Origin: Candidatus Falkowbacteria bacterium | GTDB taxonomy: Bacteria > Patescibacteriota > Patescibacteriia > XYB2-FULL-38-15 | Length of the DNA stretch: 60,671 bases | Reading direction: 5' to 3' | NCBI GenBank assembly: GCA_016214745.1 | Contig: JACRNW010000009.1 | Span: 1-60,671 of the forward strand | Shown here: in pieces, positions 29,215-58,250 of the stretch | How positions within the stretch are numbered: position 1 is the first letter of the stretch | Layout: the number at the start of each line of letters is the position of its first letter | The notes under the pieces: generated by a model | What the model was told of the DNA's origin: nothing | Databases searched by the model: none | What the model saw: only the letters and a program-made list of their open reading frames with translations | Position numbers and translations under genes: made by a program

Positions 29215-29444
29215 ATATATTAGGTAATAAAGATGATGCCCTAAAATTTATCCGAGTAACTGTAAGCCGGATTCTGTGCCTTGCCCAACTTTTGATTGGG
29301 CAAGCGGTAGTCATCTATCTAGGATTTTGATTGCTCAAAACCTCAAGCGGCTGTTTTTGGCCTTGCACCGGATAGGTGTTTTCCCCAGCGCCCGTCACCG
29401 GGCTGTCCTGCGTGAGCTCTTACCTCACGATTTAACCCTTGCCT

Positions 29445-29520
29445 CCCCCACTTACCTTGGCATAAATCTCTCGCATTTTTATCTACCATCAAAACCAATT
29501 CATGCCAAAGTAAGTGGGGG
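29445..29520. repeat. CCCCCACTTAC-clamped hairpin at the P12 position of rnpB
   Basis: The arms are CCCCCACTTACCTTGGCAT...ATGCCAAAGTAAGTGGGGG. Confidence 0.8.
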
Positions 29521-29660
29521 ATCGGCGGTATGTTTCTGTTGCACTGTCCGTGGGCTTGGTCACTTGATGTTCGATTAAAGCTGCACCTTCCGCGTAAACG
29601 GAAGACACAACACACAAACAGAAATGCTTACTCCCCGTCGCTGTTAGCGACTATCTCTCT

Positions 29661-29714
29661 CCCCCACTTACTTTGACATAAATTATCGACGATTAATGTC
29701 AAGGTAAGTGGGGG
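29661..29714. repeat. CCCCCACTTAC-clamped hairpin inside rnpB
   Basis: The arms are CCCCCACTTACTTTGACAT...ATGTCAAGGTAAGTGGGGG. Confidence 0.8.
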
Positions 29715-29733
29715 ACGGTGTCCGGACTTTCCT

Positions 29734-30028
29734 CCCCCCACTTATTAAGCCTCATTCAAACTATGTCTCAATCTTTCCCTGATTCTGCGATAACCCTGTT
29801 TAAACATCTTTAATTTCCGCTCCCTGTCCCGTGCGTCTTTTGATGATTTATATGCTTCATAATAAACCAACTCAAATGGAGCACCGCTCTTCGTGGATTT
29901 AGATTGTTTCTTGTTATGTTCTTCTAGCCGCCTTCTCAAATCAGAAGTAAAACCAATATATAATTTTCCATTAATTTTACTTCTAAGAATGTAGCAATAA
30001 TGCATAACAAGGCTTAATAAGTGGGGGG
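29734..30028. repeat. CCCCCCACTTATTAAGCC-clamped hairpin at the P3 position of rnpB, enclosing the GIY-YIG ORF
   Basis: The 18-nt arms at 29734..29751 and 30011..30028 are perfectly complementary. Confidence 0.85.
29745..30005 (-). CDS. GIY-YIG nuclease superfamily protein (UPF0213/YhbQ-like, 86 aa)
   Basis: The protein reads MHYCYILRS..GKLYIGFTSDLRRRLEEHN...YYEAY.S..DARDRERKLK. It has the same orientation as rnpB, and its stop codon lies within the hairpin arm. Confidence 0.8.
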   Translation of the reverse strand: MHYCYILRSKINGKLYIGFTSDLRRRLEEHNKKQSKSTKSGAPFELVYYEAYKSSKDARDRERKLKMFKQGYRRIRERLRHSLNEA

Positions 30029-30074
30029 TAACTACCCATTACTCGGATAAATTTTAAGGTACCAAAATATCCTT

Positions 30075-33984: not shown

Positions 33985-34079
33985 AAATAAATAAAATTAA
34001 ACTATTATAAATTAAATGCCGGAGGGGAGAGTTGAACTCCCATGGCCTTGCGGCCACACGGCTCTGAACCGTGCGCCTG

Positions 34080-34187
34080 CCCCCACACCAATGCCGCGGG
34101 TGGGAGTTGAACCCACATGACCTTGCGGCCACACGGCTCTGAACCGTGCGTGTATACCATTTCACCACCGCGGCATTGGTGTGGGGG
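34080..34187. repeat. CCCCCACACCAAT ... ATTGGTGTGGGGG hairpin element carrying a complete tRNA
   Basis: The 13-nt arms stack continuously on the acceptor stem of the inner tRNA, giving a perfect 20-bp helix. Confidence 0.8.
34092..34174 (-). tRNA. tRNA-Leu(CAG), class II with a long variable arm
   Basis: The acceptor is GCCGCGG/CCGCGGC, the anticodon loop TTCAGAG, the variable arm TGGCCGCAAGGTCAT and the T-arm GTGGG-TTCAACT-CCCAC. No CCA is encoded. Confidence 0.9.
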
Positions 34188-34313
34188 TGAATATACCATT
34201 TCACCACCCCGGCATGAGGTTTGCGGTATGAGGAAAATCTGGTTTACGCCAACCGCGCGCTTGCGCAAAGACGTAAACCAATTTCAAAAAATAGAAGTTA
34301 AAATTTTTTTAAT

Positions 34314-46259: not shown

Positions 46260-46275
46260 AGCTACTACAAAAACA

Positions 46276-46306
46276 AAAATACTCCGCCCTGACGCGGAGT
46301 ATTTTT
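46276..46306. terminator. bidirectional terminator between uvrA and rplS
   Basis: The sequence is AAAAATACTCCGC-cctga-GCGGAGTATTTTT. Confidence 0.7.
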
Positions 46307-46318
46307 AATCTTTTAAAT

Positions 46319-46708
46319 TTATGCGGCCACTTCTTTCATGCGCTTGCCATAGCTGCGGAGAAAATAGAGCTTTGATTTTCTGACTTTTGCTTGTTTCACC
46401 GGCTCAATTTTAACAATAGTCGGAAGATTGACTGGGAAAATTTTTTCCACCCCCACCCCGTTTGAAATTTTTCTAACGGTGATGGTGGCGCTTTGCCCCG
46501 TGCCGCTTTTCTTGAGAATAACCCCTTCAAAAATCTGAACTCTTTTTCTTTCTTTGGCCTTGGTCTTGCCCTTTTCTTCGGTCATTTCAACTTCCTTAAT
46601 TTGCTGATGAACGCGGATAGTCTGGCCTGGTTTTAATTCAGGCAATTCGGCCTTCTTTAACTCTTCTTTTGGCGCTTCTGACGCCTCATTTTGTTTTTGC
46701 TCTTCCAT
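46319..46708 (-). CDS. rplS: 50S ribosomal protein L19 with an acidic N-terminal extension
   Basis: The pattern is RVQIFEGVILKKSG.GQSATITVRKISNGVGVEKIFPVN.P. Confidence 0.9.
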   Translation of the reverse strand: MEEQKQNEASEAPKEELKKAELPELKPGQTIRVHQQIKEVEMTEEKGKTKAKERKRVQIFEGVILKKSGTGQSATITVRKISNGVGVEKIFPVNLPTIVKIEPVKQAKVRKSKLYFLRSYGKRMKEVAA

Positions 46709-47238
46709 ATTTTTAGTTCAGTGATAATTTTATCTACCACCTGACTGATTGTTAAATTAGTTGTATTAATGACCAAATCATAGCATTCCTCGCAAAAACA
46801 GTCAACCCCATAATACCTTTTATATCTTTTTTGGCTTTCCGCCATCCTCTTTCGAACCATAGATAGAACACCCCGAATGGTCTTTTGAGCTTCTTCGTCT
46901 GGCCTCTGATTTTTGAAAATTCTCTTTGCTGCGGCCTCGGGATTAACATCTAAAAAAACCTTAAAAGAATAGGGAATAAAATAAAAAGAAAGCCATCCTT
47001 CAATGATAAAATGATTTTCCTGTTTTCCTAATTTTTTTTGAAATTCATCAACCTCTTTGTCAGTCCAAATTTCTTTCTTGCCTATTTCGTTAAGTTCATC
47101 AATCGTCATTCCGCGTTCCATGGCCATCTTACCGCGCAAATCACCCATGGAATAAAACTTGTAACCTAATTCGGAAGATAGTTTGCGAGCGACCGATGTT
47201 TTTCCGGCTCCCGAACGTCCGCCGACAGTAATAATCAT
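46657..47238 (-). CDS. P-loop nucleoside-monophosphate kinase (archaeal-type cytidylate kinase-like)
   Basis: It has the GRSGAGKTSVARKLS P-loop. Its 3' end overlaps the rplS start by 52 nt. Confidence 0.6.
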   Translation of the reverse strand: MIITVGGRSGAGKTSVARKLSSELGYKFYSMGDLRGKMAMERGMTIDELNEIGKKEIWTDKEVDEFQKKLGKQENHFIIEGWLSFYFIPYSFKVFLDVNPEAAAKRIFKNQRPDEEAQKTIRGVLSMVRKRMAESQKRYKRYYGVDCFCEECYDLVINTTNLTISQVVDKIITELKIWKSKNKMRRQKRQKKS

Positions 47239-47924
47239 AAATTATTCAAAAAATCTTTTAATTCTTCGGGCAAGTCACTTTGGAATTCTCTCCACGTGCC
47301 ATCAAGATCGCTAAAACCAATTTTGGACGCGTGGAGGAACAATCGCGGCAAAAGCGGCTCCTTGGTTTTTTTAGATCGATAAAGTTTATCGCCAACCACC
47401 GGATAGCCAAGGGCAAAAAAGTGTACCCTGATTTGGTGCGTCCGTCCGGTTTTAATTCGCGCCGAAAGTAGAGTAAAATTTTTAAATCTTTTTGTGACTT
47501 CATATTCAGTAATCGCGAGGCGGCCACTTTCCGACCCCAGAGGTAGAGCGGCAAAACGGCCCGAGTTGGCGCGAGCAATAGGAAATTCAATTACGCCTTC
47601 ATCCTGCGAGACCTCGCCATGCACCAAAACCGTGTATTCTTTTTTTATTGTTCTTTCTTTAAATTGTTTGGAGAGATGTTCAAAAGCCGCTTCAGTTTTT
47701 GCCACTACCAAAAGTCCCGAGGCATTTTTGTCTAGGCGGTGCAGAACCCCCGGCCGCGCCGGATCAGGACCGACTTTCACAATATTTGGATAATTAGAAA
47801 CTAACCAATCAACCAAAGTCGGCTCATCCGTTTTTACTTCCGCGGCAGTTTCAAGACCGGCGGGTTTGTCAATCACCAAAAAGTTGCCATCTTCGTAAAT
47901 TTTTTTTATTTCCGTATTTATCAT
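47235..47924 (-). CDS. RluA-family pseudouridine synthase
   Basis: It has the HRLDKNASGLLVVAKT catalytic motif and the GRTHQIRVH motif. Confidence 0.85.
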   Translation of the reverse strand: MINTEIKKIYEDGNFLVIDKPAGLETAAEVKTDEPTLVDWLVSNYPNIVKVGPDPARPGVLHRLDKNASGLLVVAKTEAAFEHLSKQFKERTIKKEYTVLVHGEVSQDEGVIEFPIARANSGRFAALPLGSESGRLAITEYEVTKRFKNFTLLSARIKTGRTHQIRVHFFALGYPVVGDKLYRSKKTKEPLLPRLFLHASKIGFSDLDGTWREFQSDLPEELKDFLNNL

Positions 47925-48080
47925 ATTTTAACCTTTCATCTCAATGCCCACATAATAAAATTCCAAATCACAAATTCCAAATAAATTCAAAATTCCAATT
48001 TTCAAATTTTCAAAACAAGTTTTAGATTTTGGTTATTGAGATTTATTTGGGATTTGGTGCTTGTTATTTGGCGCTTTAAC

Positions 48081-49670
48081 TTATTTACTCTCCAAATATT
48101 TTTCTAATATCTTAAAGCCCTTTTTCTTTCTCTCTTTAATAGGATCGTCCTCTGCACCAACCTCGCCCGAAAGCTGGGCCTCGCGCAAAACTTTAATTAA
48201 TTCTCCCACTTTCGGGTCTGGCTTCAATTTAAATCGCTTCATAATTTCATCGCCGCTCAAAATTGGCTTCGGTAATCTATTTTTTTCTTTAACCAAAGAT
48301 TTTAGTCCTTCAATCCTTTTGACCATTGTGTAAAAATTTTCTAAATCCGGCTCGCCAACTTTGGGAATTGTTGCTAAAGCGTCGGCAAAAGTTAATTGCA
48401 ATAATCCATCCCCGGGAAAATTGGGGTTGAAAAAATATTTTTCAATCGTGCTTGGTTTCATGCCCTCAATTTCACCCTGCAGGAGAAGCATGTGTTTGCC
48501 AATCATCTGCTCCACTCTTTTAGGATCAACTCTGATGGGCGATCCTTCGGGCAAACTATCCAACTTTAAACGGCGACAAATTTTTCCGGCCGCTTCAGCG
48601 CCGGCCACGTCGTGCCCATCAAAACGAATGCGGTCAGTGCCGTCGCGTTCTGGAGTTTTTAAAGTCAACGGCTTGCCCAAATCATGAAACAACACAGCCA
48701 TCACCACTTCCGCGCTCGGCCGCTCTTCACCAAACTGTTTTTTAAATCTTTCGGAATAAAGATTGGCTAAAGCCATTTTGGTATGAGTCCAAACATCCCC
48801 TTCAGAATGAAAATTAGGCGGTTGTTCGCAACCACGAAGAGAAAATAATTCCGGCATCAATTCATAAAGCGCGCCGCTTGATTCATATAATTCCAGAGCT
48901 CGGACCGGATCACGCCAAAAAGCTTTTAACAATTCTTTGGCAATTGTTTCATAAGGAACCACTCTTTCTTTTTTCCCGCCTCGCTGCCGTTCATCATTTA
49001 TATTTTTAATCATGTCCTGAATGGCTAAAAAAGTTTTTCCTTCAATTGTAAAACCGAACTGCGCGGCAAAACGCAATGCCCGAAGCATTCTGGAATAATC
49101 CTCTTTAAATCTTTCTTGCGGCTCGCCCACGGCCCGAAGAACTTTCGCGTCTAAATCTTCCAAACCGTGGAAAGGATCAACTAATTTTCCATCTTTTAAA
49201 TCTAATGCCATGGTGTTCACCGTAAAATCGCGACGTCCCAAATCCTCTTCCATAGTCATTTTTGGGTCAGATTGAACTTTAAAATCGCGATACCCGCCGC
49301 CCGCGCCGAGCGAGTGTTCGGTGCGCGGTAGAGCGATATCAAACGCCTCTTCGAGCTTAAAATCTTTCGGCACAAATTTATAAACTCCGAAATTTCTTCC
49401 GACCAAAACGACTTCGCCGCGTTCTTTTAAAAATTTTTCTAGAGTCTCGGGCAAAACATTTCTGACAACAAAATCGTAATCCTTTTGTTTTTTTTCTCCC
49501 AACGCGGCGTCGCGCACCGCTCCCCCGACAAGATATATCTCGCTTTGAGGAAAAGCCGACAATAATTCTTTAGCAAAACCAAGACTTGGGTCTTGTTCCA
49601 TTTTTTCACGGAATTCCCCGAGTCTTGTTTCATAAATTGCTGTTCGATTTTTTTTCATATTTTCTGTCAT
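48081..49670 (-). CDS. cca: CCA-adding tRNA nucleotidyltransferase with an HD domain
   Basis: It has the YLVGGAVRDAALG, DFTVNTMA and LFHDLGKP motifs. Confidence 0.85.
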   Translation of the reverse strand: MTENMKKNRTAIYETRLGEFREKMEQDPSLGFAKELLSAFPQSEIYLVGGAVRDAALGEKKQKDYDFVVRNVLPETLEKFLKERGEVVLVGRNFGVYKFVPKDFKLEEAFDIALPRTEHSLGAGGGYRDFKVQSDPKMTMEEDLGRRDFTVNTMALDLKDGKLVDPFHGLEDLDAKVLRAVGEPQERFKEDYSRMLRALRFAAQFGFTIEGKTFLAIQDMIKNINDERQRGGKKERVVPYETIAKELLKAFWRDPVRALELYESSGALYELMPELFSLRGCEQPPNFHSEGDVWTHTKMALANLYSERFKKQFGEERPSAEVVMAVLFHDLGKPLTLKTPERDGTDRIRFDGHDVAGAEAAGKICRRLKLDSLPEGSPIRVDPKRVEQMIGKHMLLLQGEIEGMKPSTIEKYFFNPNFPGDGLLQLTFADALATIPKVGEPDLENFYTMVKRIEGLKSLVKEKNRLPKPILSGDEIMKRFKLKPDPKVGELIKVLREAQLSGEVGAEDDPIKERKKKGFKILEKYLESK

Positions 49671-49673
49671 AAT

Positions 49674-51131
49674 TTACTCTCCTTTTACTACGGCCAGCGG
49701 CACGAGCCGCGCCACTTTTTTCGCGAGCCCCGCCCGGTCAACCACATCCACAACTTCATTAATATCTTTATACGCCAGCGGCGCTTCTTCAGTCAAACCG
49801 CTCATCGACGCGCAGCGAACAATAATTCCTTGCGCTTCTAATTCTTTTTTTAAAGTTTGGCCGCTGATACGCCGCCGCGACTCAGCTCGCGACATTCTCC
49901 GACCGGCTCCATGACAAGTTGAACCAAATGACTCGGCCATCGCCGTCTCGGTTCCAACCAAAACATACGACGCCGTTCCCATACTTCCGGGAATTAAAAC
50001 TGGCTGGCCGACCGCACGATAAATTTCCGGCAATTCCACGCGACCAGGACCGAAAGCTCTCGTCGCGCCTTTTCGGTGCAAACAGACTTTTACTTTTTTG
50101 CCGTCAATTTCATGCTCTTCAAATTTCGCGATATTGTGAGCCACGTCATAAACCAAATCCAAATTGTATTTGCCGCTCGTTTTATGGCTCAAAACTCTTT
50201 CCCAGGCTTGCCGAACTAAATTTGTAATCATCTGGCGATTAGCCCAGGCGAAATTAGCTGCCGCGGCCATGGCTTTAAAATACCTTTGTCCTTCGTCCGA
50301 GTCAAGCGGCGCCGACGCCAATTCCCGATCCGGCAATTTAATATTCCATGACGGCAATTTTTCATTCATTAATCTAACATAATCTGTGCAAACCTGATGC
50401 CCAAGTCCGCGTGAACCGGTGTGAATCATCACCGTAATTTGATTTTCGCGCATGCCAAAAATTTTGGCTACCTCCGGCAGAAAAATTTTTTCTATCCGCT
50501 GAATTTCCAAAAAATGATTGCCTGAACCGAGAGTGCCAAGCTGGTCTCGGCCGCGCTGTTTAGCGTGGTCTGAAACAAGCGAGGCGTCGGCGTTTAAAAG
50601 ACACCCGCCTTCTTCCGATTTTTCCAAATCTTCCTTCACACCATAACCCTGCGCAACCATTCGCCCCGCTCCACCCAAAAGTACGGCATCCAAATCTTTC
50701 TCGTTCAAAACCATTCTCCCGCCGCGCCCGACGCCCGACGGCACGTCGCGAGCAATTTGGTTAGCGAGATCAACCAAATACGGCGCGAGTTCGCTATGCA
50801 AAAAACTGCTCGTCAAAAGTCTGACGCCGCAGTTGATGTCATAACCCACGCCGCCCGGAGAAATTACTCCTCGTTTCGCGTCCATCGCCGCCACGCCGCC
50901 GATCGGAAAACCATAACCCTCATGAATATCGGGCATAGCCAAGGCATATTTTAAAATTCCCGGCAGAGTTGCAATATTAACCAGTTGCTCAAGCGACCGA
51001 TCTTCCTGAATTTCTTCAAGCATTTTTTCACTCGCGTAAATCCTCGCCGGCACCCGCATGTCAGAACGAAAAGATTGGGGAATTTCCCACAACTGGTTGC
51101 TGATTTTTTTAAATATTTCTTTTGCAAACAT
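49674..51131 (-). CDS. rtcB: RNA-splicing ligase RtcB
   Basis: It has PDIHEGYGFPIGGVAA, HTGSRGLGHQV and TCHGAGR motifs. Confidence 0.95.
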   Translation of the reverse strand: MFAKEIFKKISNQLWEIPQSFRSDMRVPARIYASEKMLEEIQEDRSLEQLVNIATLPGILKYALAMPDIHEGYGFPIGGVAAMDAKRGVISPGGVGYDINCGVRLLTSSFLHSELAPYLVDLANQIARDVPSGVGRGGRMVLNEKDLDAVLLGGAGRMVAQGYGVKEDLEKSEEGGCLLNADASLVSDHAKQRGRDQLGTLGSGNHFLEIQRIEKIFLPEVAKIFGMRENQITVMIHTGSRGLGHQVCTDYVRLMNEKLPSWNIKLPDRELASAPLDSDEGQRYFKAMAAAANFAWANRQMITNLVRQAWERVLSHKTSGKYNLDLVYDVAHNIAKFEEHEIDGKKVKVCLHRKGATRAFGPGRVELPEIYRAVGQPVLIPGSMGTASYVLVGTETAMAESFGSTCHGAGRRMSRAESRRRISGQTLKKELEAQGIIVRCASMSGLTEEAPLAYKDINEVVDVVDRAGLAKKVARLVPLAVVKGE

Positions 51132-51187
51132 AAAATTAATTCAAAAGACAAAATGCAAAATGCAAAATTATAATTCAAAATTTAAAA

Positions 51188-51229
51188 TTACTAATTACCA
51201 ATTACTAATTACTCGTTACGCGTTACTAT
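51188..51229. repeat. heptanucleotide tandem repeat TTACTAA TTACCAA TTACTAA TTACTCG TTACGCG TTACTAT
   Basis: It is the reverse complement of the array at 43192..43226. It lies just downstream of the archease stop on the minus strand. Confidence 0.85.
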
Positions 51230-51232
51230 TTT

Positions 51233-51706
51233 CTAAATGTCAAAAAGAACCGTCGCCTCCCAGCCGCCGTCAGTTTTTTTAATCTCCAGCCCGTGATAAG
51301 TCACGGCCTTTATTTCCGTGCTAAAACTTTTAACTGGAGCTCCAAAAATTTCCGCCTCGAGTTCTGTCTCAGTCAATTTTTCAAATTCCACTTCAAAATA
51401 AGCTTCATTATTTATATCACTCAAAGTTAACGCTTCACTCAAAAAGTCTACGAGCAAACTCTGCTCGTCCGCCGACTTGATATTAATCTTTCTCGTCCGG
51501 ATTCCCCTCCTTTTCAAGGAGGGGCTAGGGGTGGTTAAAATTTTTGGCTTCACACTTTCAAACATGCCTTTTAACATATTCAAAAACAACTCCTCTTTTG
51601 TTTTACCAAAAGCTCTAATTTTTAGATCTGTGGTGTGTTCCAAAATTTCGTATTTTTTCATAAACAAAAGATGTCTTTTCTTTATTTTATCACACTTTCC
51701 GGCCAA
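51233..51706 (-). CDS. archease (RtcB activator)
   Basis: The pattern is YEILEHTTDLKIRAFG...IKAVTYHGLEI...W.ATVLFDI. It carries an in-frame palindromic insert at 51504..51534. Confidence 0.85.
   Translation of the reverse strand: MAGKCDKIKKRHLLFMKKYEILEHTTDLKIRAFGKTKEELFLNMLKGMFESVKPKILTTPSPSLKRRGIRTRKINIKSADEQSLLVDFLSEALTLSDINNEAYFEVEFEKLTETELEAEIFGAPVKSFSTEIKAVTYHGLEIKKTDGGWEATVLFDI
51504..51534. repeat. G/C-rich palindromic element CCCCTCCTT-ttc-AAGGAGGGG + CTAGGGGTGG inside archease
   Basis: This is read directly. It encodes TTPSPSLKRRG. Confidence 0.75.
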
Positions 51707-51733
51707 AACCTACAATTTTTATCAATTACAAAA

Positions 51734-51807
51734 TGGGCGTGGATGGACTCGAACCATCGACCCCGGCTTTATAAGAGCCGTGCTCTAACCAGCTGAGCTA
51801 CACGCCC
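51734..51807 (-). tRNA. tRNA-Ile(UAU)
   Basis: The acceptor is GGGCGTG/CACGCCC, the anticodon loop CTTATAA and the T-loop TTCGAGT. No CCA is encoded. Confidence 0.85.
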
Positions 51808-52040
51808 ACAATTTGTTTTTTAAAGCATAACGGAAAAGGATGATTTTTTCAAGACCATAAAATTATCCACTTAATATTTTAATTTCGGAAAAATATAAAA
51901 TAAAAAAAATAAAAGTTATCCACATTTTGCTTGTTGACATCGAAAAAAAGGTTTATAATTAAATAATGATGATGTTATAAAATTTTATTTTAAAAAATTT
52001 TATTCTCATTTTATCTTTTGTAAAAAGGAGGTGAACCAAC

Positions 52041-52112
52041 ATGGCAAAAAAGAAAGCGAAAAAGAGAGTCGCGAAAAAACGAAAAGCGACTAAAAAGAAA
52101 AAACGAAGATAA
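52041..52112 (+). CDS. 23-aa Lys/Arg-rich peptide MAKKKAKKRVAKKRKATKKKKRR
   Basis: AAGGAGGTG lies 7 nt upstream of the ATG. A strong terminator at 52118..52155 lies immediately downstream. It falls below the ORF-track cutoff. Confidence 0.5.
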   Translation: MAKKKAKKRVAKKRKATKKKKRR

Positions 52113-52117
52113 CGTTT

Positions 52118-52155
52118 AAAAAACTTCTCCTGCGTGCGCACGGAGAAGTTTTTTT
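52118..52155 (+). terminator. intrinsic terminator
   Basis: The sequence is AAAAAACTTCTCC-tgcgtgcgcac-GGAGAAGTTTTTTT. Confidence 0.7.
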
Positions 52156-52177
52156 ACTGAAAATTTTTCTTAAAAAA

Positions 52178-53449
52178 TTAAAACAAACTTTCCTGCTTTA
52201 TCTTTTTCTTTTCTTTATCATTAAAAAGTCTCACGGTCCCATAAACGCCGTCGTAACCCGGCTCAATTTTTACTTTTCCCTCGCGATTCCGGCGAATGGC
52301 TTCTACAATTTCAGGCAAGGTAATTTTGGCTAATTCTTCATAAGATAAATCCAAAAGCACCCGGAATTCACTGCCGCCTTTTGCGATTAAATTATCGTAC
52401 TCGCGCGTTACGGCCTTAGTCCGCCGGCCGAAAACTCCGAGCGCCTCGGCAATCGCATCATCCAAACCCACTAAACTTTTATAATCAATCGCGTTTCCCG
52501 GCCGCTCGCCTTCCGGACGATCTGCCAATTCTTCCACTCGGTTTAACACGCCGACAGTTACCGGCCGGCCGCAAACCGGACAAATCCCTTTTCGTTTTCG
52601 CGTCTCTTCCGGCGTCATTCTGATTTTGCAAGCTCGATGGCCGTCAAAATGATACATTCCCTCTTCGGGATAAAACTCAACTGTGTATAAAAATTTTTTC
52701 TTATCCTTCTCTTTAATAATCCGGCAAATTTCATCGTAAAAATTTTTCACGCCATCGCCAATTTCAAAAGCGTCTGCTTCTCTTCCGATATTTTCCGGCG
52801 AATGCGCGTCTGAATGAGAAACCAAAGTAATCTTGTCCAATTTTTTTAATCGCCAATTCATTGCCGGATCTGAAGAGAGCCCGGTTTCCACGGCATAAAT
52901 TTTTGGCGTAAGCTCATCAAAACATTCTTCAAGCGAGTCAAATCCTGATTTTGAACCAAACACCGCAAACCACGGCGTCCAAGCGTGCGCCGGAATTATC
53001 ATACATCGCTCATCAATTTCAAAAACAACCTCCGCAAGTTTTTTAGCATCCAATCCCAAAATTGGCCGGCCATCAGAAGCCAATTTTCCTAACGCTCCTA
53101 ATTTCTCGTTAATTTTCGCCGCAACCTCAAGCGTTGGTGCGAAAATTAAAATATGGAGGCGCCTGCACCGACCGCCTTTTGAATAAATACAACTTACCTC
53201 GGTAGAAATAAAAAAATAAACTGGCCGCGTAGCCTGTTCTTTATCTTCCGCCAATTCGTACAAACCGTTCGCCGCCAATTTTAATTTGCTTTTGAGTTCG
53301 GCAAACCACTTCGGGTGAGTGAAGTCGGCGCAAGAAACAATGTCCACGCCTTTTTTCCGGCACCAATCAACAATAATTTCCGGCACAAGGCGCGGCGAAC
53401 AAGCGCGAGAATATTTTGAGTGAATATGTAAATCGCTGATGTAGCGCAT
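52178..53449 (-). CDS. endonuclease Q-like PHP-domain protein
   Basis: It has the N-terminal DLHIHSKYSRACS motif, a PHP-type His/Asp pattern and a CPVCGRP zinc-knuckle. Confidence 0.6.
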   Translation of the reverse strand: MRYISDLHIHSKYSRACSPRLVPEIIVDWCRKKGVDIVSCADFTHPKWFAELKSKLKLAANGLYELAEDKEQATRPVYFFISTEVSCIYSKGGRCRRLHILIFAPTLEVAAKINEKLGALGKLASDGRPILGLDAKKLAEVVFEIDERCMIIPAHAWTPWFAVFGSKSGFDSLEECFDELTPKIYAVETGLSSDPAMNWRLKKLDKITLVSHSDAHSPENIGREADAFEIGDGVKNFYDEICRIIKEKDKKKFLYTVEFYPEEGMYHFDGHRACKIRMTPEETRKRKGICPVCGRPVTVGVLNRVEELADRPEGERPGNAIDYKSLVGLDDAIAEALGVFGRRTKAVTREYDNLIAKGGSEFRVLLDLSYEELAKITLPEIVEAIRRNREGKVKIEPGYDGVYGTVRLFNDKEKKKIKQESLF

Positions 53450-53459
53450 AAATGAATTT

Positions 53460-53510
53460 AAAGGATCCTAAAGATCTTAAAGATCTTAAAGATCGTAATG
53501 ATCCTCAGAA
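53460..53510. repeat. 9-bp-periodic array AAGGATCC TAAAGATCT TAAAGATCT TAAAGATCG TAATGATCC
   Basis: This is read directly between two minus-strand genes. It contains five GATC sites at 9-bp spacing. Confidence 0.9.
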
Positions 53511-53522
53511 TGGGCTGTTATC

Positions 53523-54260
53523 TTAAATTAAACTTTTTGCCAGACTTAACTGCTCCGGAGTATTAACTCCCACCGCCTCGGTCGGATTGTCGGTGACTAA
53601 AGTTTCTACTTTACAATTTTCTGAAATCGCAAGCTTAACTAAATCAGTCAAATAAAATTCTCCTTGAGCATTATCGCAATTAATTTTTGCTAGATTATCC
53701 CACAGCCACTCCGACTCAAAACAGAAAAAAGACGGATTAACTTCTGATATTTGTAATTGCTCCGGCGTGGCGTCTTTTTTTTCCACGATCGCAATAATTT
53801 CCCCTGACTCATTTCTCATAATCCGGCCAAAATCATAAAACACTTCGCGCCATTCATTAAAATCCGGCAAACGAAGCGTAGCTAAAGTAAGCACGGCTTG
53901 TTTTTTCTCATGCGCCGCGACAAGTTTTATTAAAGTCTCCGGCCGGAGAAACGGCGTATCGCCATTTACCACGACAACATTATCGGCGTCGTGCACAAAA
54001 TCTTTGGTGCAAGAAACAGCATGAGCCGTGCCCAACTGTTCCGCTTGCAAAACATAGCTGCATTTTGTCCCCACATATTTTTTAATAATTTCCGTGCCAT
54101 AACCAATAACAACCACTGGCCTCTTTGTCACGCCCGACTCCAAAACCGAGTCCACCACTCTTTCAATCATGGTTTTTCCGCCGACTTCCCGCAAAACTTT
54201 CGGCAAACCGGCGCCCATCCTTTTTCCTTTTCCAGCGGCTAAGATAACGACTTGAGTCAT
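53523..54260 (-). CDS. sugar-1-phosphate nucleotidyltransferase (GlmU N-terminal-domain-like, no acetyltransferase domain)
   Basis: It has the VILAAGKGKRM motif, and its 245-aa length fits. Confidence 0.8.
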   Translation of the reverse strand: MTQVVILAAGKGKRMGAGLPKVLREVGGKTMIERVVDSVLESGVTKRPVVVIGYGTEIIKKYVGTKCSYVLQAEQLGTAHAVSCTKDFVHDADNVVVVNGDTPFLRPETLIKLVAAHEKKQAVLTLATLRLPDFNEWREVFYDFGRIMRNESGEIIAIVEKKDATPEQLQISEVNPSFFCFESEWLWDNLAKINCDNAQGEFYLTDLVKLAISENCKVETLVTDNPTEAVGVNTPEQLSLAKSLI

Positions 54261-54336
54261 ATAATTTATTACAAAAAACTCTTTAAGGTAAGATTACCCG
54301 AATAAACCAATTTTTTCAAGATGCAAAAGGAAAAAC

Positions 54337-54370
54337 AAAAAGCCGTCCGCTGAATCGGCGGACGACTTTT
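54337..54370 (-). terminator. terminator of the rRNA unit
   Basis: The minus strand reads AAAAGTCGTCCGCC-gattca-GCGGACGGCTTTTT. Confidence 0.65.
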
Positions 54371-54386
54371 ACATTTTTAACTTGAA

Positions 54387-54495
54387 AACCCGGCACTGTC
54401 CTACTTTCCCCAAAGAGTATCATCGGGGCTGAGGTGCTTAACTTCTGTGTTCGGGATGGGAACAGGTGTGGCCACCTCGCTAGTAGCACCGGGAT
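54387..54495 (-). rRNA. rrf: 5S rRNA
   Basis: The reverse complement contains CCCATCCCGAACACAGAAGTTAAGC and paired CCCGGTG/CGCCGGG-like termini. Confidence 0.9.
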
Positions 54496-54665
54496 TTCAA
54501 GCTAAAAATGCTTGAAATTTTTTGTATGTTTGTATGTTTGAACAATTCTTGTGGTTAGAATCGACCTATTAGTACGGCTCGGCTCAAATCCTTACGGACC
54601 TTACACCTGCCGCCTATCAACCTTGTGTTCTTCAAGGGGTCTAAACGAAATTTAATCTTGAAACC

Positions 54666-54700
<35 letters not shown>

Positions 54701-54822
54701 TGCCGAACGTAGCTACCCAGCTATGCCCTTGGTAGGACAACTGGTACACTAGAGGTTCGTCCTTCCCGGTCCTCTCGTACTAGGGAAGAGTTTTCTCAAA
54801 TTTCCGCGCCCACGACAGATAG

Positions 54823-54874
<52 letters not shown>

Positions 54875-54887
54875 TGGCGAACAGCCA

Positions 54888-54957
<70 letters not shown>

Positions 54958-55671
54958 ATGGACTCTTGGGGGAGATCAGCCTGTTATCCCCGGAGTAGCT
55001 TTTATCCGTTGAGCTTCGACCATCCTATATTGGATCGTCGGATCACTAAGTTATGCTTTCGCAACTCAGCGACTTGTAAGTCTTTGAGTAAAGCTGGCTT
55101 GTGCCTTTACGCGTCCAGCCCGGTTTCCATCCGGGCTAAGCCAACCTTTGTAAACGCCTCCGTTACTTTTTAGGAGGCAACCGCCCCAGTTAAACTACCC
55201 ACCAGACACTGTCTCCCAAACCGGATTACGGTCTCGGATTAGAATTAAAATTAAACAAGGGTGGTGTCTCATTGGCGCCTTGCGGCTCCCACCTACGCTG
55301 AACATGTTTAGTCTTAATCCAATATCAAGTTGTAGTAAAGCTTCACGGGGTCTTTTCGTCTAGCCGTGGGTAAAGGGCATCTTCACCCCTCTTGCAATTT
55401 CACCGAGTCCCTCGTTAAGACAGTTCTCAAGTTGTTATGCCATTCGTGCGGGTCGGAACTCACCCGACAAGGGATTTCGCTACCTTAGGACGATTATAGT
55501 TATCGCCGGCGTTCATCAGCGCTTAAGTTCAAGGCTGCCCCGTCTTGCGACGGATGACCTCTCCCCTTAACGTTCTGACACTGGCCAGGCATCAGCCCCT
55601 ATACGTTGCCTTACGGCTTTGCAGGGACCTGTGTTTTTGGTAAACAGTCACTTGAGATATTTTTATTGCAA

Positions 55672-55802
55672 CCCCCCACATAACTTTCGATGCAAGTATT
55701 AAGATACTTGCCAAATCTTTGAAAGATTTTTCCGCGATTTATTCCGGAAACACTATAAATTTCACACTTTCTCTTTTCTTTTCTCGAAAGTTATGTGGGG
55801 GG
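55672..55802. repeat. CCCCCCACATAACTTTCGA ... TCGAAAGTTATGTGGGGGG hairpin expansion in 23S (helix 63 region)
   Basis: The 19-nt arms are perfect. The element lies between GGGATAAGCCTTG and TTGCAATAAAAATATCTCAAGTGACTGTTTACC on the rRNA strand. Confidence 0.8.
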
Positions 55803-57000
55803 CAAGGCTTATCCCGAAGTTACGCCTAGTTTTTTTGCTTAGTTCCTAAACGAGGGTTCTCTCGTACACCTTAGGCTTCCCGCCTTGTCCACCTGTGTCG
55901 GTTTACGGTACGGTCTCCGTATCTTTAGCGCCCATAAGATTTTCTAGGCCCCTACTTTGCAAGAATCGGCTCCACCTTGCGGCTTCACCTGCGAACCGTC
56001 CACGATAAATCGGAACGGCCCAAGCGCATAACCAAATCGCTCTCTTACCACATAGAAGCGCACTTACGGACAAAAATACGGAGGTGCAGGAATATTAACC
56101 TGCTCTTCCATCGGCTACGCCTTTCGGCCTCGCCTTAGGATCGACTAACCCTGGGTCGATTTGCGTTGCCCAGGAAACCTTAGACTATCGGTGCTCTGAG
56201 TTTTCATCAGAGTTTTTGTTACTTATGCCAACATTCTCACTTCTCAAGCCTCCACCGCTCCTTACGGATACGACTTCGCTGACTTGAGAAAGCTCCCCTA
56301 CCGCTCTCCGATAAATCGGAGAACCCGTGCCTTCGGTACCGAATTTAGTCCCGATTATTTTCGACGCAGAAAAACTCGACTAGTGAGCTGTTACGCTTTC
56401 TTTAAAGGATGGCTGCTTCTAAGCCAACCTCCTAGTTGTTTGAGTCTTTCCACCACCTTTAACACTTAATTCGGATTTAGGGACCTTAAGCGACGATCTG
56501 GGCTGTTTCCCTTTTGACTAGTGAAGCTTAGCCCTCACAGTCTGACTCCCGGACTAAAAACATAGTATTCGGAGTTTGATTGGTGCAATCGACTTTCGCC
56601 GAATTGAACCATTCAGTGCTCTACCCCTATATTGTATATCCGAGGCTAGCCCTACAGCTATTTCGGGGAGAACCAGCTATTACCGAGTTCGATTGGAATT
56701 TCACCTCTAGCCACAACTCATCCCCATGTGTTGCACAGCATGTGGGTTCGGGCCTCCAGTCCGATTTCTCGGACCTTCACCCTGGTCATGGCTAGCTCAC
56801 CCGGTTTCGGGTCTCGTGTGCGCGACAAACGCCCTATTAAGGCTCGCTTTCACTTCGGCTTCCTCTCCATGGGAGATTAACCAAGCCACGCACAGCAAAC
56901 TCGTTGGCTCATTCTTCAATAGGAACGCTGCAACCCTTGCGGGCCGCAACTCCTTGTAAGCGTATGGTTTCAGGTACTTTTCATCGGCCTAACCGGCCTG

Positions 57001-57037
<37 letters not shown>

Positions 57038-57400
57038 ATCACTAAAAAATATTTAGTCTTGGCACATAGTCGTGCCGGATTCCCACGGGATTTCACGAGG
57101 CCCGTGGTACTTAAGTCAATCACAGCAAGATTACAGCTCCTTTTGAGTACAGGACTTTCACCTTCTCTGGTCCCTGTTTCCACAGGAGTTCTTCTAGGAA
57201 AGCTGTCCCGATTGCTCGGGCTTTTCCCTTGCCTGTCTTATTGGGAAGACAACGCGACTGACTCGCGTATCCTTGTTAGCAACGGCCCAAACCTTTAATT
57301 AGCAGCGGCCGAGAAGTCTTGCGACCCCCCGACCATCCGCTAAAACACTAACAAGGTTTTCGACTTTTCCCCGTTCGCTCGCCACTACTTGGGGAATGGG

Positions 57401-57496
57401 CTAGTTAATAAGTTTATAAGTTCATCAGCCAGTAAATAAATACCGACCAACTTAAGTTCCGCAAAACGGAACGAAACTTATAAACTTAAAAACTAG
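57401..57496. repeat. AT-rich hairpin expansion in 23S domain I
   Basis: The arms are CTAGTTAATAAGTTTATAAGTT...AACTTATAAACTTAAAAACTAG. It is inserted between GGAAAAGAAACAAAG and ATTCCCCAAGTAGTGGCGAGCGAAC on the rRNA strand. Confidence 0.75.
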
Positions 57497-58250
57497 TCTT
57501 TGTTTCTTTTCCTCCGGTTACTGAGATGTTTCACTTCACCGGGTTGCCTTCGCTACCCTATGAATTCAGATAGCGATGATCCGATCTTCAATCGGACCGG
57601 GTTACCCCATTCGGAAATCTCCGGATCAAAGGTTGCTTGCCACCTCCCCGAAGCTTATCGCAGGCTACTACGTCCTTCATCGTTTTTTAGTGTCTAGGCA
57701 TCCACCATACGCCCTTATATCTAACCACAAGAATTGTTAAAACATACATTTTACAATTCTCATTTTTATGTTGGCTCTCTTTACTTTGTTGTTGGGTATA
57801 TAAGATGCTCTTTTATTCAATTGTTAATGAACAATTTTTTTCTGTTTCTCGCCTCTCGTTTTATTTAGAAACCAGAGGCGGGAGCAAAAAATAATTTTTT
57901 GAAAAAGGACTAAAAAACCGCTCTTTTCGAGCGGCTTGGTACGACCAAAAAATGGGTTAACCGCTCGGGAACTTAAAAGTTAAAACTTGTTTTACCATAT
58001 TTTGCCCAATATCAGAGGAAAATCGTCAGATGTAGTTCTGGATAAAATGTGGACAACTTCCTCTGTTTTCTTAGTACATTAGTATTTTAATACCATCTAA
58101 AAAAGCTGTCAACCCCGTTAGAAATCTGTTTAATATTTTACAAAGTTATTTTAAAAAGTCAAGCCGGGATTAATATTCTCAATCTGCACAAAAAAATTTT
58201 ATTTAAAATTTTTTCTCAAAGATTTCTAACGGGGTCAAGAGGATTTAAAT

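Follow-up and report, generated by a model that had tools for sequence, protein, structure and literature searches.

An optional archease-RtcB cassette and hairpin-bearing stable RNA genes in a Candidatus Falkowbacteria bacterium

Here we analysed a stretch of 60,671 nucleotides (nt) from a Candidatus Falkowbacteria bacterium (contig JACRNW010000009.1 of assembly GCA_016214745.1; this whole stretch is called the window below), in which the genes for the RNA ligase RtcB and for archease lie between a tRNA-Ile gene and the gene of a CCA-adding enzyme (cca), and in which RNase P RNA, 23S rRNA and tRNA genes carry hairpin elements ended by the motif CCCCCAC. The archease-rtcB pair is an optional two-gene unit, and we hold it, with a probability of about 0.5, to be a facultative ligase cassette for RNA repair and maintenance, the hairpins being mobile elements at the DNA level that are tolerated in peripheral helices. 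An earlier reading of the window from its letters alone (the sequence-only reading) had proposed that the hairpins are excised from the RNA and that at least some of the products are re-joined by RtcB and archease. That interpretation survives in part: its gene identities and its ligase pair stand, and its RNase III route falls.

The archease-rtcB pair in a conserved run of genes

The GTDB family of the organism (the focal family) comprised ten genomes in our search, and a search at the level of the order gave the same ten. RtcB and archease occur in the same five of them, and the five that have no RtcB include a single-contig genome of the same genus that is rated 100% complete. Each of the five without RtcB has the tRNA-Ile(UAU) gene adjoining cca-rluA. 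Because the two genes are present in the same five genomes and because tRNA-Ile and cca are adjacent where the pair is missing, archease-rtcB behaves as a two-gene unit that is present or absent in a conserved backbone; the cassette is inserted in the housekeeping run tRNA-Ile, cca, rluA, cmk, rplS and is optional even within the genus. That three genera have it at the same position suggests that it was lost more than once.

Of 151 genomes of the wider class, 20 proved to have RtcB, as did 48 of 401 in a larger draw, and 15 of the 20 class loci that were fetched show archease immediately upstream of rtcB and in the same orientation. The cca gene neighbours rtcB in three of these 20 loci, all of the focal family, so that the ligase's link to cca and the tRNA gene is one of local synteny. 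We considered cca as a general functional partner of rtcB and rejected it, given that the adjacency is restricted to the family and that cca stays by the tRNA gene when the cassette is absent. Other contexts of the pair in the class are the inside of an mreB-mreC-...-PBP2 run, often with a phosphoribosyltransferase gene next, and the neighbourhood of a LigT-like phosphoesterase gene. In five loci from several families (L033, L034, L036, L040 and L042; L, G and C numbers are our handles for loci, genomes and contigs, G000 being the genome of the window) the ligase genes are wedged in a run of mreB, mreC, an open reading frame (ORF) of 176 amino acids (aa), further genes and PBP2; among loci of this type the phosphoribosyltransferase gene comes next in three, and L036 has rtcB alone with no archease detected. 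A further locus (L031:4933-5781, plus strand, in G050) holds a single frame of 282 aa in which a PF05635 '23S rRNA intervening sequence protein' domain (E 3.7e-17) is joined to archease; this fused frame stands directly upstream of rtcB, and the sister genome G108 has a plain archease.

The sequence-only reading had named four consecutive minus-strand genes, for tRNA-Ile(UAU), archease, RtcB and a CCA-adding enzyme, and these were borne out by ARAGORN, Rfam and Pfam; all features of the window described in this work lie on its minus strand. In the case of RtcB (49674-51131), the match to PF01139 is full length (E 8e-176, profile positions 1-426 of 426), the best solved relatives are the chains of Pyrococcus horikoshii RtcB (4dwr/1uc2, E about 1e-184), and the blocks with the Cys and His residues align to the P. 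horikoshii protein without a difference. By the literature on catalysis, these residues would be the metal-binding Cys/His and the guanylylated His. By its sequence the protein is an archaeal-type ligase, with a predicted, GTP-dependent activity of joining 3'-phosphate or 2',3'-cyclic phosphate ends to 5'-OH ends of RNA. Archease (51233-51661; 142 aa from an ATG at 51661, the likely start as set by alignment with eight relatives) was assigned to its family by the match to the PF01951 profile (E 5.1e-32) together with its place directly upstream of rtcB, and it also matches the archease structure 4n2p in PDB (E 4.7e-12). The description of the two proteins as a 3'-phosphate/5'-OH RNA ligase pair was right. 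The archease gene also contains an in-frame, GC-rich palindrome of 21 nt (51504-51524), which makes a variable loop of the protein about seven residues longer than in its relatives.

The cca gene (48081-49670), which starts 3 nt past the rtcB stop, encodes a class II nucleotidyltransferase head (PF01743, PolyA_pol, E 2.1e-24) and an HD domain (PF01966, E 5.2e-7). It is the single PF01743 match in the whole genome of 923 kb, and the encoded CCA is missing from at least 26 of the 45 tRNA genes, so that we regard the product as the housekeeping CCA-adding enzyme. It falls below every curated equivalog cut-off (the best NCBIfam model, NF008137, gives 172.6 bits against a cut-off of 451), and as a diverged member of the family it is predicted, rather than proven, to add CCA as opposed to CC or A. 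The tRNA-Ile gene (anticodon UAU, TAT in the DNA; 51733-51808; ARAGORN, and 72.8 bits with the Rfam tRNA model) has no encoded CCA and heads the co-directional run, and just upstream of it a consensus scan found a promoter-like site (TTGAAA, 17 nt, TATGCT; 51824-51852) that is a consensus match only, at 9 of 12 positions.

Downstream of cca the co-directional backbone continues over 46274-47924 with genes identified by Pfam and NCBIfam, namely those of an RluA-family pseudouridine synthase (47235-47924), cytidylate kinase (cmk, 46657-47238) and ribosomal protein L19 (rplS, 46319-46708), whose order rluA-cmk-rplS is kept in relatives; the first strong terminator-like hairpin of the run in a terminator scan comes after rplS (46274-46307). 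Upstream of tRNA-Ile lies a gene (52178-53449) that matches TIGR00375 below its cut-off (E 4.6e-48) and has no Pfam match; we take TIGR00375 to be the endonuclease Q type of DNA repair nuclease. As regards decoding, the genome has this tRNA-Ile(UAU) and only two CAU tRNAs, and the PP-loop family of TilS is unmatched in it, all 14 controls having matched; lysidine is probably not used to read AUA.

Hairpin elements and the RNA genes they occupy

The motif CCCCCAC occurs 17 times in the window against 4.56 expected copies, a number reached in none of 100 shuffles (0/100), and most copies form inverted pairs that end perfect or near-perfect hairpins. Genome-wide, the same arms are found in two forms, as bare intergenic palindromes of 24-29 nt and as longer elements with cargo.

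One of the genes so occupied is that of RNase P RNA (about 29240-30060; Rfam RF00010, 123.3 bits, of which cmscan reports only 29247-29726), for which the sequence-only reading had given about 425 nt of hairpin inserts; inverted repeats and comparison with nine relatives bear this out, with three elements of 295, 56 and 78 nt that amount to 429 nt, and the gene is 368 nt longer than that of the relative G005. The first element (29734-30028) replaces helix P3 and encloses a gene for a GIY-YIG nuclease of 86 aa (29745-30005; PF01541, E 3.6e-18) on the strand of the RNase P RNA; the second (29660-29715) stands just past the 5' strand of P4, and the third (29444-29521) occupies P12. In 23S rRNA, a CCCCCCAC-ended hairpin of about 131 nt with perfect arms of 19 base pairs (bp; 55672-55802) replaces a short hairpin, as seen in the alignment with the 23S of six relatives, at a site that is probably helix 63, and a similar hairpin lies at the same place in the RtcB-positive genome G006. 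Expanded 23S helices had been announced in the plural; against the six relatives there is one such genome-specific hairpin and only one.

The tRNA said to be split by a hairpin insert is indeed split, but its insert holds more than a hairpin. The gene is a nested tRNA-Leu(CAG) (34017-34213), with outer halves at 34188-34213 and 34017-34079 and an insert of 108 nt between them (34080-34187); the insert is clamped by a perfect inverted repeat of 20 bp and contains a complete, diverged tRNA-Leu(CAG) at 34091-34175. The outer gene is split in its D arm, and over 59 nt its 3' part shows 100% identity to the syntenic gene of G007, which is intact. The outer copy is the ancestral gene, for whose loss the element apparently makes up with a copy of its own. 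A second pair nested in this way lies outside the window in the same genome (G000:C8:46270-46520, minus strand), where a complete tRNA-Val(CAC), clamped by a different inverted repeat, sits in the D loop of another tRNA-Val(CAC). Two further tRNA loci of this genome were noted. At G000:C3:19553-19916 a CCCCCAC element of 281 nt with a GIY-YIG-like ORF abuts tRNA-Ile(GAU), such that the last three G of the element are the first acceptor-stem bases and the displaced original 5' end lies beyond the far side of the element; at G000:C4:23301-23405 (minus strand) a tRNA-like gene (54 bits) has 31 extra anticodon-loop bases in the form of two small hairpins, within a stretch of 64% G+C.

In RNase P RNA (P3, the site adjacent to P4, and P12) and in 23S rRNA, the elements replace native hairpins stem for stem rather than merely extending them, the inverted repeat of the element becoming the helix. 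All of these inserts are at apical, peripheral hairpins, and their stems are continuous, 19-25 bp long and 92-100% paired. GIY-YIG genes inside RNase P RNA genes were observed in six genomes of five families, that is, in the window's own and in G004, G030, G117, G325 and G337 (RNase P loci L009, L088, L073, L194 and L199, respectively); four of them are in P3 and two further inside the gene, and all six are on the strand of the RNA. P3, beside the conserved strand of P4, seems to be a site at which elements land repeatedly. Another departure from the usual gene was seen in the RtcB-positive relative G008 (locus L011, contig C7), whose RNase P RNA has 144 nt between the P4 strands, lacks the whole specificity domain and scores 41 bits; a minimal gene form, a pseudogene or an assembly error would each account for it.

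Public RNA runs were compared with positions 48001-58000 of the window, of which they shared only small parts (0.07-0.16 of sampled words, all kept as contigs). Four runs that fell on the 23S/5S stretch cover the conserved parts of 23S and have near zero depth in the bin of the hairpin, and an RNA contig (run X3, record 18) lacks 55671-55800 and has 15 different letters at that place. The short native hairpin of a relative would give this very pattern, and the insert-bearing organism is therefore not evidently in these runs.

RtcB, RNase P RNA genes and RNA ends

In the reading we favour, archease-activated RtcB would seal RNA broken so as to leave a 3'-phosphate or 2',3'-cyclic phosphate on one side and a 5'-OH on the other, with stable RNAs (tRNA, RNase P RNA and rRNA) as what we infer to be its likely substrates, and the adjoining CCA enzyme would restore the 3' ends of tRNAs. 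The CCCCCAC hairpins would be DNA elements akin to miniature inverted-repeat transposable elements, some of them carrying a tRNA or the gene of a GIY-YIG nuclease, which would land in the peripheral hairpins of RNA genes and replace them. As to the fate of the inserts, we infer that the RNA would either keep them or lose them by trimming with no joining afterwards, as is known for 23S intervening sequences. That the inserts act at the DNA level is drawn from the bare intergenic palindromes with the same arms and from arm counts that are independent of RtcB: the number of CCCCCACACC arms per genome is 30 in G000, 14 and 12 in the RtcB-less G001 and G003, and 0 and 1 in the RtcB-positive G002 and G004.

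RtcB is clearly not required for carrying inserts, as hairpin or GIY-YIG inserts are found in the RNase P RNA of RtcB-less genomes including G030, G337 and G148, with the GIY-YIG genes of G030 and G337 inside the RNase P RNA gene. Whether inserts are more frequent where RtcB is present was examined in two samples that share no genome, for which only part of the RtcB-negative genomes was taken (every second one of 123 for sample 1, 60 for sample 2) and kinship above the level of the family was not corrected for. The comparison omits two RtcB-positive genes truncated at contig ends (G057 and G082), an RtcB-positive genome in which RNase P was not matched (G382), three loci lacking the motif pair (G143, G220 and G274) and four genomes whose RtcB matches are fragmentary (G196, G252, G286 and G346).

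Several outcomes of this comparison weigh against the reading just given. The Rfam score of the RNase P RNA is lower where RtcB is present, with medians of 143 against 164 in sample 1 (P = 0.026; tested without the window's own genome and the two genes cut by contig ends) and of 109 against 168 in sample 2 (19 and 57 genomes; P = 3.5e-5). The same holds within families, the RtcB-positive member scoring lower in 11 of the 12 informative families, and in 10 of 11 when the focal family is excluded (sign test, P = 0.012). More than 500 nt between the P4 strands were found in 10/36 RtcB-positive against 11/116 RtcB-negative genomes (P = 0.011), with a threshold that was picked after the data had been seen and with counts in sample 1 alone (3/17 against 7/61) that are not significant. 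GIY-YIG genes lie inside the RNase P gene in 4/41 RtcB-positive against 2/121 RtcB-negative genomes (P = 0.036; 2/36 against 2/116, P = 0.24, when the focal family is excluded). The number of GIY-YIG matches per genome is equal in the two groups (medians of 5 and 5.5 in 36 and 44 genomes; P = 0.50), and the RNase P association is therefore not explained by it. A replicated association within families is not what a purely unrelated repair module would predict. To this must be added that no damaging ribonuclease that would make substrates for RtcB, and thereby be the source of the breaks, was found in the genome.

The focal family shows the same tendency, four of its five RtcB-positive genomes scoring under all five RtcB-negative ones, with P3 inserts in 3/5 RtcB-positive and 0/5 RtcB-negative genomes and the 23S hairpin in 2/4 and 0/3 of the respective full-length 23S genes. 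Over the curated genomes P3 inserts occur in 7/22 RtcB-positive against 7/66 RtcB-negative (P = 0.038; 4/17 against 7/61, P = 0.24, for the class only). This curation was done by hand for sample 1 only, as automatic calls of the P1 start by complementarity gave many false distant calls; an automatic 'P3 insert' flag showed no association (15/36 against 52/116) and was judged too noisy to count either way. Measures of length gave a different picture. No difference in the distance between the P4 strands was seen overall (medians of 376 and 363.5 nt; P = 0.11) or within families (RtcB-positive longer in 6, shorter in 4 to 5), nor do the cmsearch spans differ by RtcB status in sample 1. In the RtcB-positive G194, for example, the P4 strands are 299 nt apart and the score is 122.8 bits, the values for its relative G128 being 349 nt and 218.8 bits. 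The robust association of RtcB is thus with an aberrant RNase P RNA gene, and not specifically with a longer or a hairpin-interrupted one. The sequence-only reading had suggested looking for co-occurrence of rtcB and archease with interrupted RNA genes: the lower RNase P scores in two samples and within families speak for it, and the mixed length measures and the inserts in RtcB-less genomes against it. As a confounder of these comparisons we also considered the genome-wide load of elements or GIY-YIG genes, which is not supported, the GIY-YIG medians being equal and the arm counts independent of RtcB.

A further question is which cutting route could lead to ends suitable for RtcB. RNase P and RNase Z leave 3'-OH and 5'-phosphate ends. 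Cleavage by RNase III yields the same kind of ends, as stated in the part of PMC8708148 that we used, and RtcB joins 3'-phosphate or 2',3'-cyclic phosphate ends to 5'-OH ends, according to the portion of PMC4604427 available to us. The genome does have an RNase III gene (G000:C15:85121-85513, E 3.1e-40), but ends of the RNase III type are not RtcB substrates, and the proposal that a double-stranded RNA endonuclease of this type excises the stems for re-joining by RtcB is, as worded, chemically inconsistent and has to be given up (on the end chemistry given in that part of PMC8708148). In the genome, which is rated 95% complete, the splicing endonuclease EndA (PF01974) has 0 matches, its control being matched in four archaea; MazF, RelE/ParE and HEPN families were not found in it, the RtcA cyclase (PF01137) has 0 matches and so does the group I intron (RF00028). 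In the window, no intron or self-cleaving ribozyme family of Rfam was found at E up to 0.5, and no bulge-helix-bulge was found at the insert borders, where the arms are continuous helices. With the elements in place of apical hairpins, an RNA whose stem is cut would not fall apart even if it is never ligated; known 23S intervening sequences show this behaviour (PMC11270868). In the case of the outer tRNA-Leu, removal of the insert would give no canonical tRNA, extra bases being left between the D arm and the anticodon stem.

Rival readings and known systems

With the RNase III route gone, the proposal of excision and re-joining can be kept in corrected form if a nuclease other than RNase III, one that leaves 2',3'-cyclic phosphate and 5'-OH ends, cuts the inserts out and RtcB with archease rejoins the flanks; this would amount to RNA splicing by protein alone in a bacterium, perhaps of a facultative kind. 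It would accommodate the more aberrant RNase P RNA genes that go with RtcB in both samples and within families, the enrichment with RtcB of strongly expanded and of GIY-YIG-bearing RNase P genes at an equal genome-wide GIY-YIG load, the distribution by RtcB status of P3 inserts and of the 23S hairpin in the focal family, and the placement of all six GIY-YIG genes inside RNase P genes on the strand of the RNA. We nevertheless consider it unlikely, as it would need a nuclease for which none of the candidates (EndA, MazF, RelE/ParE, HEPN) was found in the genome, and no known ribozyme or intron was found in its place (group I genome-wide, Rfam families in the window); moreover, the stems of 19-25 bp are continuous and have no bulge-helix-bulge, the apical position of the inserts would dispense with ligation, the same kinds of insert occur in RtcB-less genomes, RNase P gene length does not differ within families (6 longer, 4 shorter) and even precise excision would leave the outer tRNA-Leu non-canonical. 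The broader proposal that, across this class of ultra-small bacteria, RtcB with archease lets stable-RNA genes (those of RNase P RNA and rRNA, and perhaps of tRNA) carry selfish hairpin elements, some with a nuclease gene, by re-joining the RNA after removal of the insert or after breakage, appears to us quite unlikely; it would mean a bacterial system of splicing or resealing that is intron-like yet catalysed by protein. A bolder variant of it, in which RtcB ligation is itself the route by which elements enter exposed RNA loops, would fit the six same-strand nuclease genes.

It is also conceivable that there is no functional link at all, lineages that bear the cassette being also faster-evolving, with stable RNA genes diverged in general. 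The within-family signal lies in the model score and not in gene length, and some RtcB-positive RNase P RNAs are short and diverged (G194 against G128), as such an account would have it; comparison within families, however, removes much of the effect of lineage, and we find it doubtful. Very improbable, finally, is an archaeal style of tRNA splicing in which the cassette would act on tRNA genes, with introns or in split form, that have escaped recognition. In its favour are the archaeal type of RtcB, the two tRNA genes interrupted by inserts, the tRNA-like gene with 31 extra anticodon-loop bases on another contig, and the tRNAs with the anticodons Gly-GCC, Leu-UAA and Leu-UAG, which are expected from the codon table and were not found in the genome. 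Yet the PF01974 endonuclease was not matched either, both split tRNAs have an intact replacement copy inside their insert, tRNA-Leu(UAA) is probably in an assembly gap (the copy of the relatives lies beyond the end of this contig), and close relatives do without RtcB. The reading as an optional repair and maintenance cassette beside tolerated DNA elements is the one we retain.

Among known systems, the enterobacterial rtcBA operon under RtcR is an RNA repair operon with a dispensable RtcB for broken stable RNAs. The role proposed here, of a dispensable repair ligase for stable RNA, is alike; the differences are that no RtcA was found in the genome and that archease is present (an E. coli control has none). 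The arrangement of the genes is closer to the archease-RtcB 'tRNA splicing operon' of archaea and some bacteria (Desai et al. 2014, PMC3973293; Desai et al. 2015, PMC4604427), of which, as far as the parts of these papers that we drew on describe it, the cassette shares the place of archease directly upstream of rtcB on one strand, the Pyrococcus-like RtcB and the same predicted end chemistry. It differs in its ultra-small bacterial host, in which no splicing endonuclease was found, in being optional within the genus, and in being wedged, in the focal family only, between a tRNA gene and cca.

The inserts, for their part, resemble the 23S intervening sequences of Salmonella, Coxiella and others, which are excised by RNase III without re-ligation according to the passages of PMC11270868 and PMC8708148 that we consulted; both are stem-loop inserts at the tips of peripheral helices, some with a small ORF, with horizontal spread and with RNase III in the host. 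Compared with what those passages describe, the elements here are also found in RNase P RNA, tRNA genes and intergenic DNA and have GIY-YIG or tRNA cargo. In rRNA genes of the Candidate Phyla Radiation (CPR), non-intron inserts encoding GIY-YIG proteins are described, for which RNase III cutting without ligation has been suggested (Tsurumaki et al. 2024, PMC11270868, in the part seen by us). The bacterial group, the protein family, the non-intron nature and the sites at the top or base of a stem-loop are the same; the paper deals with rRNA genes only, does not contain the word RtcB, and covers neither RNase P RNA and tRNA hosts nor a relation to RtcB. CPR RNase P RNAs are themselves diverged and extended, as stated in the portion of PMC8172020 that we used. 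A likeness by description only exists with the Ssn GIY-YIG single-strand DNA nucleases of Neisseria and their hairpin repeats (Chenal et al. 2025, PMC11893778, as far as seen), where a small GIY-YIG protein likewise goes together with many copies of hairpin-forming repeats; the Neisseria repeats are not reported inside RNA genes in the sections at hand. In the literature searched, which did not cover supplements, we found nothing that links RtcB to insert-bearing RNAs of CPR or Patescibacteria.

Taking all the results together, the gene cluster itself is ordinary, being a known pair of ligase and activator beside housekeeping RNA genes, and it is the setting that could matter: mobile hairpin elements are tolerated here in the only RNase P RNA gene, in 23S rRNA and in tRNA genes. 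The cassette is most likely an optional RNA-repair module and not proven splicing machinery for the hairpin inserts. Should its link to the inserts prove functional, interrupted stable RNAs would here be joined again by protein enzymes alone, for the first time in bacteria; otherwise the cassette would simply add one to the optional ones for RNA repair.

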